From positions 32,001-96,000 of IMG/VR virus record IMGVR_UViG_3300045988_019695: a stretch of 64,000 nucleotides of DNA. One strand, written 5' to 3'. Below, in pieces: positions 44,262 to 45,219 of this stretch. The translations under genes and the position numbers were made by a program. This stretch comes from a virus. The notes beneath the pieces were generated by a model, which had not been told where the DNA came from, made no database searches, and saw only the letters and a list, made by a program, of their open reading frames with translations. Positions within the stretch are counted from its first letter, which is position 1; each line of letters opens with the position of its first letter.

Positions 44262-44819
44262 ATGGAGTATCAGCGTATCACTCAATCTGAAATTGAGACC
44301 ATAAAAGAAGCTCAAAAGGGAAATGAGCTAGCGTTTAATAAATTGTTTAACCGTTATAAAGAGTTTATCGACAATGTACTCTTTTATTACGTGAATGACA
44401 TGGATGAAGCTAAAGATCTTACTAATGTAGTATTTCTTAAGGTTCACCAGAAACTCTCGACATTCACAGACTATTCGTCTTTTGGCGGATGGCTGAGAAT
44501 TATAGCTAATAGAACAGCTATAGATTATCTACGAAAAGTAAAGGAAAAATCTATGGAATTAGGAGAAGATACAGGCCGACTACCTGTTGAATTAACTAAT
44601 TCTTCAGAAGAAGAAGATCTTGTCAATCTTCTTGAGTATGAATCTCTTCTAAAGGAGTTTGAAAAACTCCCAAAGAAGACACAGAAGATATTTAATTTAT
44701 TCTACGTAGAAGATCTGTCAGTTGATGAAATTAGCAAAGTGCTAAAAACTCCTACAGGCACTATAAAAGCTGCGTTAAGTCGCACTCGTAGGAAAATTAG
44801 AAATAACTTAAAAGTTTAA
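44262..44819 (+). CDS. ECF-type sigma-70 family RNA polymerase sigma factor
   Basis: Region 2: DEAKDLTNVVFLKVHQKL..FGGWLRIIANRTAIDYLRK. Region 4: LPKKTQKIFNLFYVEDLSVDEISKVLKTPTGTIKAALSRTRRKIRNNL. Confidence 0.8.
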   Translation: MEYQRITQSEIETIKEAQKGNELAFNKLFNRYKEFIDNVLFYYVNDMDEAKDLTNVVFLKVHQKLSTFTDYSSFGGWLRIIANRTAIDYLRKVKEKSMELGEDTGRLPVELTNSSEEEDLVNLLEYESLLKEFEKLPKKTQKIFNLFYVEDLSVDEISKVLKTPTGTIKAALSRTRRKIRNNLKV

Positions 44820-44823
44820 CAAA

Positions 44824-45219
44824 ATGACTTCACTTTTATTATTGATTCTCTCGATTTTTGTAGCTCTTGGTTTCGCAAGATACAATAAGAGCAACAAGTT
44901 GTTCTGGATCATTCTCGTAAGTCTCTTGCTTGGTTTTACTGGTAAGAGCATGGTCAACTATGCCTTTGTTGACCATGAAAGTGAAGCCAGTACAGTTAAA
45001 TCTTCCACAACTCCCATGCTGGCACCGACGTGCTCATTTCAGGCTTTGGAACCCTCAGAGGGCGCTGGTACATGTGCTGAGACAAAACCAGCAGGTAAGG
45101 ATACAGTTGTGGTAGATACTGTTACTGTGCTTAACTTGGGTGAAGACGAGCATATCAATGTGCTCACTAAACCTCCACGAGATTGGTTAAAAACGAACTT
45201 TATATTCGACACAAGTTGA
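44824..45219 (+). CDS. membrane protein downstream of the sigma factor, possible anti-sigma factor
   Basis: Two N-terminal hydrophobic helices. It starts 4 nt after the sigma gene. The call is positional only. Confidence 0.3.
   Translation: MTSLLLLILSIFVALGFARYNKSNKLFWIILVSLLLGFTGKSMVNYAFVDHESEASTVKSSTTPMLAPTCSFQALEPSEGAGTCAETKPAGKDTVVVDTVTVLNLGEDEHINVLTKPPRDWLKTNFIFDTS

Follow-up and report, generated by a model that had tools for sequence, protein, structure and literature searches.

The phage proteins SPO1 gp28, SPO1 gp33/34 and T4 gp55 are sigma factors that redirect the host RNA polymerase; these systems have mapped promoters and no membrane partner. Among bacterial sigma factors, those of the extracytoplasmic function (ECF) type, such as SigW (PDB 5wuq), sigmaE (1or7, 4lup) and Pseudomonas aeruginosa AlgU (8z6g), consist of sigma-2 and sigma-4 domains in ∼185 residues, and the gene adjoining theirs is of the RsiW/RseA/MucA type, with an N-terminal cytoplasmic domain. 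Here we describe a gene pair of a gut crAss-like phage, located in a 64,000-nt stretch of viral DNA (positions 32,001 to 96,000 of IMG/VR record IMGVR_UViG_3300045988_019695; hereafter the window), in which an ECF-type sigma factor gene is followed after 4 nt by the gene for a small two-helix membrane protein (hereafter the partner). The window sigma factor shares the two-domain build and length of the bacterial proteins, but is phage-encoded and only ∼25-30% identical to them, and its adjoining gene is not of the RsiW/RseA/MucA type. Like the phage sigma factors of PHROG 1740, it is a sigma-70-family gene lying among early and replication genes, where a switch to later genes would be expected; unlike the SPO1 and T4 systems, it has a membrane partner.

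Within the crAss-like phages the closest described case is phi14:2, in which a virion-packaged polymerase transcribes the early genes, leaving the middle and late genes, with their primary-sigma-like promoters, to the rifampicin-sensitive host polymerase. Since this has been published for phi14:2, use of the host polymerase is expected in this phage order, and the sequence-only reading that preceded our analysis overstated the case in treating it as a surprising additional layer. The window phage also has a virion polymerase, and thus resembles the three-component scheme of phi14:2 with a sigma factor added. On balance, we favour the reading that the gene encodes a functional ECF-type phage sigma factor which redirects the host RNA polymerase to phage promoters in a cascade. 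The features of the gene are as follows.

44262-44819, plus strand: sigma factor gene, 185 aa, ATG start, TAA stop (open reading frame list, hidden Markov models, fold)
44343-44540, plus strand: sigma-2 domain, aa 28-93
aa 94-127 of the sigma factor (∼33 aa), plus strand: disordered linker (AlphaFold model)
44640-44798, plus strand: sigma-4 domain, aa 127-179
44820-44823, plus strand: 4-nt spacer CAAA separating the sigma and partner genes

Identity of the sigma factor

The two open reading frames (ORFs) at 44262-44819 and 44824-45219, separated by 4 nt, are present in the ORF list as the sequence-only reading had described them, and its call of an ECF-type sigma factor with regions 2 and 4 was borne out by Pfam, TIGR02937, a profile match to SigW and a fold search. 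Pfam Sigma70_r2 (PF04542) matched residues 28-93 (E 6e-13; 48.8 bits against a cut-off of 24) and Sigma70_r4_2 (PF08281) residues 127-179 (E 8e-13; 48.2 bits against 25.7), while Sigma70_ECF matched over its curated cut-off (E 8e-7). The NCBIfam model TIGR02937 (sigma70-ECF) spanned the protein end to end (residues 24-183; 86.7 bits against a cut-off of 42.9), and PHROG 1740, "RNA polymerase sigma factor", matched with an E-value of 1e-25. A proposed check for membership in a non-sigma helix-turn-helix family thus ended in assignment by the hidden Markov models to sigma-70 ECF instead. The protein has two domains only, without region 1.1 or region 3.

Structural comparisons gave the same result. 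Using a profile of 14 homologues as the query against PDB, the best solved relative was Bacillus subtilis SigW (5wuq; E 1.8e-22, residues 13-184), with AlgU and sigmaE ranking next. The AlphaFold model (mean pLDDT, the predicted local confidence, 71) contained two helical domains joined by the disordered linker, and the top 27 Foldseek matches to this model in PDB were all ECF sigma factors, led by sigmaE, AlgU and SigW. The sigma-2 domain superposed on region 2 of E. coli sigmaE with a root-mean-square deviation of 1.3 Å over 87 columns.

No named ECF equivalog or subfamily model in NCBIfam reached its own cut-off on this protein. The SigW models scored 88-95 bits against cut-offs of 209-243, the RpoE model 69.6 against 236 and the BldN family model 85.8 against 206, and the Bacteroidetes-specific models Sig70_bacteroi1 and PG0214 family scored 80.9 against 126.4 and 78.1 against 130, respectively. 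The product of 44262-44819 is therefore a bona fide group-IV (ECF-type) sigma factor that lies outside every curated group.

The gene itself is not new. It is already labelled "RNA polymerase sigma-W factor" in the crAss-like phages cr7_1 (YP_010112752.1) and cr124_1 (YP_010113098.1), in which the protein is 96-97% identical, the position and neighbours are alike and the partner is a "hypothetical protein"; the same label appears in ∼20 further "cr" crAss genomes in RefSeq/GenBank, and annotated copies occur in four crAss subfamilies. "Sigma-W" is an automated or similarity-based name only, and we reject it for this protein, on which the SigW models fall far below their cut-offs. Our literature searches found no study that discusses the sigma gene in crAss-like phages. 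The "cr" genomes presumably come from Yutin et al. 2021. The word "sigma" is absent from the main text of Yutin et al. 2021, and a 2026 mouse-virome paper lists "RNAP sigma factor" (RNAP, RNA polymerase) as enriched in its Zeta subtype. What is added here is a lineage-wide sigma-partner module and an uncharacterised partner family.

Conservation of the sigma factor in the delta lineage

The 6-kb stretch around the pair is ∼89% nucleotide-identical to cr7_1 and cr124_1, which belong to Burzaovirus in the Oafivirinae (Suoliviridae in their records, Darmviridae in current taxonomy). The window is thus from a crAss-like phage (Crassvirales, former "delta" group), as the sequence-only reading had held. 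A search of a collection of 5.8 billion proteins returned 548 sigma homologues at E<=1e-5; the 120 matches listed of these were 56-97% identical, and many were encoded on ∼100-kb contigs. Two segments, FGGWLR..NRTAIDYLR and PTGTIK..SRTRRK, varied little or not at all among homologues of 58-95% identity, and correspond to those that touch the core polymerase and DNA in known ECF sigma factors.

The sigma factor is the most conserved protein of its neighbourhood. Between clades its identity is ∼56-60% (three loci with non-ATG starts give artefactually low sigma values in this comparison), against 10-35% for the other five neighbour proteins, including the partner. At the nucleotide level among close relatives, the sigma gene scored 0.939 for conservation and the partner gene 0.934, and the flanking genes of unknown function 0.81-0.88. 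Such strong constraint would fit a protein that docks on a conserved host enzyme and reads a conserved promoter. No chromosomal homologue closer than 28% identity emerged from a pattern-based scan of bacterial genomes; nearer matches in that scan were phage-sized contigs binned into metagenome-assembled genomes (MAGs), among them two Segatella copri bins. The gene is a conserved core gene of the delta lineage (Oafivirinae, now Darmviridae, plus Suoliviridae).

Near-identical phage genomes (L090 and L091, 101-kb contigs) are binned into Segatella copri MAGs, and one member of the partner family (P0135) carries the UniRef label "Prevotella sp."; together these give a weak hint of Segatella/Prevotella as the host.

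Gene blocks and genetic code

The genome is laid out in two opposed gene blocks, and the reference genome contains the giant polymerase genes. The plus block (∼33.5-64 kb of the window) encodes DNA polymerase, helicase, primase and the sigma factor and uses the standard code, with its genes tightly packed throughout and a TAG stop in five of 43. The minus block (1-33.2 kb) carries the portal, terminase, capsid and tail genes; its ORF coverage is 0.31 in the standard code and 0.84 with TAG as a sense codon, and single genes contain as many as 20 in-frame TAGs. A code switch between the blocks, proposed from sequence alone, is therefore real: the minus block is TAG-recoded and the block of the sigma gene is not.

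ARAGORN and Rfam did not identify a clear suppressor tRNA with a CUA anticodon. Of the tRNAs in the minus block, that at 31061-31135 (minus strand) has an apparent 8-nt anticodon loop, for which ARAGORN gives the 4-base anticodon "tgaa", and that at 31356-31429 (minus strand) was detected by Rfam only. The tRNA T-loop-like sequence GGTTCGAWTCC occurs in nine copies (0.7 expected), at 16340, 30499, 31073, 31156 and 31367 on the minus strand and at 37482, 43012, 43252 and 59793 on the plus strand; several lie outside called tRNAs and may be tRNA-like or intron-associated elements.

The membrane partner

44824-45219, plus strand: partner gene, 131 aa, ATG start, TGA stop
44827-44883, plus strand: helix 1, aa 2-20
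44875-44907, plus strand: conserved loop ARYNKSNKLFW, aa 18-28
44896-44970, plus strand: helix 2, aa 25-49
44971-45216, plus strand: acidic disordered tail with a DTS end, aa 50-131

In 79 of 81 related loci the next ORF begins -4 to +7 nt after the sigma stop and encodes a product of 128-145 residues with the same plan, in which the loop ARYN(E/K)SNKLFW connects a hydrophobic helix to another helix and the tail varies up to its final (D/N)(T/D)S. Its upkeep in these loci shows the partner to be a real gene, and from the tight spacing the two genes are expected to be co-transcribed and probably translationally coupled. The pair also occurs in Uncouvirinae cr118_1, Loutivirinae cr113_1 and Boorivirinae cr50_1 and cr1_1, where the sigma factor is ∼30% identical to that of the window, and on two contigs with 46-47% sigma identity. 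Sigma factor and partner thus remain together across the former delta group (Oafivirinae, Uncouvirinae, Loutivirinae and Boorivirinae). Outside it, distant sigma relatives on contigs that do not look crAss-like are followed by a classical anti-sigma gene whose product has an N-terminal cytoplasmic domain, in one case with the zinc-binding motif HxxxCxxC. In Bacteroides phage SJC03 no membrane protein follows the sigma relative.

The AlphaFold model of the partner consists of helices at residues 2-20 and 25-49, with the remainder unstructured (pLDDT below 50). A two-helix membrane protein in the usual place of an anti-sigma gene, and lacking an obvious cytoplasmic anti-sigma domain, is what the sequence-only reading had described, and the model, the 4-nt spacer and the family scans agree with it on both counts. 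The partner matched no family above threshold in Pfam, NCBIfam or PHROGs, and 51 diverse members scanned singly matched no anti-sigma family, giving only weak, hydrophobicity-driven matches. In place of an N-terminal cytoplasmic anti-sigma domain of classes I-III (RsiW/RseA/ZAS-like), the protein begins with a membrane hairpin.

An exhaustive profile search yielded 185 cluster representatives of the partner family at 50% identity. Because nearly all are 118-156 residues long and match from residue 1, the family is considered stand-alone, without fused domains; an apparent natural sigma-partner fusion (P0028) was rejected as the chimeric product of a 704-nt contig. Mean identity across 51 representatives is 27%, yet R19, N21, S23, N24, L26, F27, W28 and P118 are each at least 90% conserved, the inter-helix loop (family form ARYNESNKLFW) is near-invariant and most members end in DTS. 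Further short conserved motifs of the tail are PTQ, KP.GK and PP. Across 63 sequences the loop carried a net charge of +2.0 and the segment that follows helix 2 one of +0.5. This bias is moderate; under the positive-inside rule it tentatively suggests a cytoplasmic loop with the 85-residue acidic tail outside.

The partner resembles the RsiW, RseA and ZAS anti-sigma factors in the place of its gene immediately after the sigma gene, in its insertion into the membrane and in its faster divergence compared with the sigma factor. It differs in that its parts are reversed, with the hairpin first, and in lacking both the ∼80-residue N-terminal sigma-binding domain and HxxxCxxC; it also has two helices instead of one, and its tail is disordered and probably extracytoplasmic.

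Gene neighbourhood

43283-44232, plus strand: two packed, co-directional upstream genes, 173 aa and 138 aa, unknown function
45287-47304, plus strand: two downstream genes, 504 aa and 133 aa, no family matches

The order of the 504-aa and 133-aa genes after the pair was unchanged in all subfamilies examined. The gene directly upstream of the sigma gene (43816-44232, plus strand) stops at TAG, and its counterpart in cr7_1 and cr124_1 is annotated 72 nt longer, through the TAG, so as to overlap the sigma start. As the reference annotation reads through TAG, the true end of this gene depends on when TAG suppression sets in.

Promoter searches and conserved non-coding elements

42534-42814, plus strand: cluster of the repeated 15-mer AGTATCTTCGTATCA (exact at 42534, 42632 and 42800; degenerate at 42714)
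42974-43206, plus strand (ARAGORN 42944-43297): permuted two-piece transfer-messenger RNA (tmRNA) gene, Rfam RF04321, 56.5 bits
45256-45286, plus strand: gene-start motif TTAGTATTAACATTTTAAAAACATTATCAAA, directly before the ATG of the 504-aa gene

Promoter scans of the window were negative. The canonical ECF patterns, AAC-N16/17-CGT or GTC, were not enriched in its intergenic regions, and nothing rose above controls among dyads of 4+4 nt with 14-19 nt spacers or in 5- and 6-mer enrichment, nor above shuffles among 12-mers with up to 2 mismatches. A target promoter of the sigma factor was therefore not found. Specifically, ECF-type -35/-10 motifs were sought upstream of the minus-strand operons, where the sequence-only reading had suggested looking, and none were found; its proposal that the sigma factor is tied to the code switch is thus left with gene position as its support. 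TAGGGTGAG and TTAACGTG, spotted by eye in conserved intergenic regions, were not enriched. A generic sigma-70 scan gave 32 sites in the window (29 expected), and host-type Bacteroidetes promoters (TTTG..TAnnTTTG) had 0 co-oriented matches in intergenic regions. The near-absence of host-type promoters is consistent with a phage whose promoter specificity is its own.

Only the 15-mer, a direct repeat of GTATC, is strongly repeated. A further exact copy lies at 49294-49308 (plus strand), before gene 49408, for a total of four exact copies and one degenerate, four of the five being upstream of the tmRNA and the sigma-containing cluster. Close relatives keep the same places, and a more distant clade has GAGCC-TT(T)-GAGCC at these positions, often within short variable inverted repeats, although the hairpin context is not consistently significant. 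Positions noted in related contigs are 3919, 4076 and 11352 in L047 and 755, 890 and 10966 in L049. We consider the 15-mer an unlikely site for the sigma factor: it has no -35/-10 spacing, and its sequence differs between clades while the DNA-binding residues of the sigma factor do not. It is more likely a site of some other factor, such as the virion polymerase, and may be an early-promoter or RNA element.

The 15-mer cluster is followed by the tmRNA gene, and the sigma-containing gene cluster opens ∼80 nt further downstream. The tag peptide of the tmRNA is given by ARAGORN as DNVNNIVDYTNVA, and a tmRNA is also annotated in cr7_1, cr124_1 and cr50_1.

The gene-start motif has the form (A)AGT(A/T)ATTAAC - TTTAAA - CATTATCAAA - ATG, and, written as ..TTAAC..TTTAAA..(C)ATTATCAAA, is found on the plus strand at 38249-38279, 40697-40727, 41992-42022, 45256-45286 and 51513-51543. 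In all four subfamilies it is found ahead of some plus-block genes, and it does not occur in the minus block; a loose regular expression for it was not enriched window-wide. It contains TCAAA, which we take to resemble the -10 element of sigmaE. As an ECF promoter the motif was rejected on three counts: its AAC and TC are 13-15 nt apart instead of ∼18, transcription would start inside the coding sequence, and it is unchanged across subfamilies whose sigma factors are only ∼30% identical. Candidate roles are those of a promoter, leader or translation signal.

Proposed role in transcription and alternative explanations

In the sequence of events that we propose, the sigma factor would be made from the standard-code plus block together with the replication genes, ahead of the TAG-recoded structural genes, a timing suggested by the place of its gene in the standard-code replication block. 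It would then displace the host's own sigma factor on the host core RNA polymerase and take the enzyme to phage promoters, most probably driving the middle or late programme; this later promoter class possibly includes the TAG-recoded structural operons. The partner, presumably co-transcribed and probably translationally coupled, would be a small inner-membrane protein and the lineage-wide companion of the sigma factor. The identity and intactness of the sigma factor, the lineage-wide conservation of the pair, the gene position and the genetic code are observed directly, and it is from these that we infer host-core binding, timing and target promoters. Several points weigh against this proposal. 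None of the ECF-pattern, dyad or oligomer scans found a target promoter, and the 15-mer does not track the DNA-binding residues of the sigma factor. We know of no isolate, cultured member or expression data for the delta lineage. In phi14:2 the promoters used by the host polymerase are primary-sigma-like and no phage sigma factor was reported, so that such a factor is not a general requirement in crAss-like phages.

The lack of a sigma-type promoter class on phage DNA in the window might instead mean that the sigma factor mainly reprogrammes host genes, for example a host ECF envelope or stress regulon, or serves the phage's own giant RNA polymerase, and phage sigma factors do reportedly alter host programmes (to go by the title of Schwartz et al. 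2022). We regard either role as very unlikely: neither the protein search nor the bacterial genome scan gave the family a close cellular relative with a regulon to mimic, it falls short on the Bacteroidetes-specific ECF models, and its strong constraint as a core gene of a lytic phage agrees with an essential part in the phage's own programme. As for the giant polymerase, crAss virion polymerases are, to our knowledge, single-chain two-barrel enzymes with no known sigma docking surfaces. Redirection of the host polymerase to phage promoters thus remains the reading that we favour for the sigma factor, and the partner poses a separate question. It may well be unrelated to the sigma factor, an early membrane protein (superinfection exclusion, membrane remodelling or holin-like) whose adjacency reflects conserved gene order, and we give this explanation considerable weight without regarding it as probable. 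Synteny is conserved across the whole neighbourhood, tight packing is general in the plus block, the partner diverges as its neighbours do (25-35% identity, against 56-60% for the sigma factor) and its tail is probably outside the cytoplasm. A Pfam "Superinfection immunity protein" match over helix 2 points the same way, but at 13.4 bits (cut-off 27.9) it is far under threshold and hydrophobicity-driven; moreover there is no adjacent lysis gene, the near-invariant loop is left unexplained and the pair was never split in the loci examined.

The other explanation for the partner is a non-canonical membrane-anchored anti-sigma factor or tether, which would hold the sigma factor at the inner membrane until its release by a signal or by proteolysis, the latter perhaps beginning at the conserved C-terminal DTS, and would thereby time a sigma-dependent switch. 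The gene position is the classic one in 79 of the 81 loci (-4 to +7 nt), the pair is present in all four subfamilies down to ∼30% sigma identity, the partner family is stand-alone and uniform in size, and the two genes are equally conserved in close relatives (0.939 and 0.934). Conservation of at least 90% at seven loop positions, in a protein otherwise averaging 27% identity, is the pattern of a specific binding surface, and the disordered tail with its PTQ, KP.GK, PP and DTS motifs could fold on binding. We nevertheless think such a role rather unlikely, since the N-terminal cytoplasmic anti-sigma domain is missing, no anti-sigma family was matched in 51 members, and the sigma relatives outside crAss-like phages have classical anti-sigma factors (one with HxxxCxxC), from which the partner differs in kind. 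In addition, the charge bias places the loop inside and the tail outside, leaving only ∼8 cytoplasmic residues, and the synteny is not specific to the pair, the next two genes being kept in order as well. That the partner represents a new class of anti-sigma factor or tether without a known anti-sigma domain, gripping the sigma factor by the loop ARYNESNKLFW and/or the tail, seems to us improbable.

Other elements of the window

Four further regions were noted. On the plus strand, a RAGATH-1 hammerhead ribozyme lies at 36973-37052 in a plus-block intergenic region (71.8 bits; gathering score 56.3), and the 2.1-kb region 47305-49407 has no convincing ORF and a conservation of 0.92-0.93, higher than that of neighbouring protein genes, making it a candidate large non-coding RNA or structured region. 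On the minus strand, the late intergenic region 9583-9657 is conserved down to 44% flanking-protein identity and includes the block TAGGGTGAGTAGAAAAAATTAA; it has a hairpin with the loop TTAGGT and compensatory changes CTAG/CTAG, CCGG/CCGG and CTGG/CCAG (L104-L135, ∼7900-8000). The major capsid gene region contains an ORF-bearing insertion (13815-14673, minus strand) that is missing from related genomes, with a conservation of 0.23-0.31 compared to >0.9 in its flanks. The insertion looks like a mobile intron, and mobile introns have been reported for delta-group capsid genes in a 2021 survey.

Implications for crAss-like phages

These results do not overturn the current understanding: phage sigma factors are a familiar strategy, and the gene was already labelled in databases. 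The partner family is well populated and unannotated, and is a cheap target for interaction and topology work. Should it prove to be a new anti-sigma class, release of the sigma factor, perhaps by proteolysis at DTS, would couple the early-to-late and TAG-recoding shift to the state of the envelope. The delta group was the largest crAss group of the human gut virome in the 2021 survey, and a lineage-wide, constrained sigma factor would mean that its phages bring their own promoter specificity, unlike phi14:2, which apparently borrows the primary sigma factor of its host. The sigma factor together with host core polymerase would then provide a handle for mapping promoters and for timing the switch to the TAG-recoded late genes.

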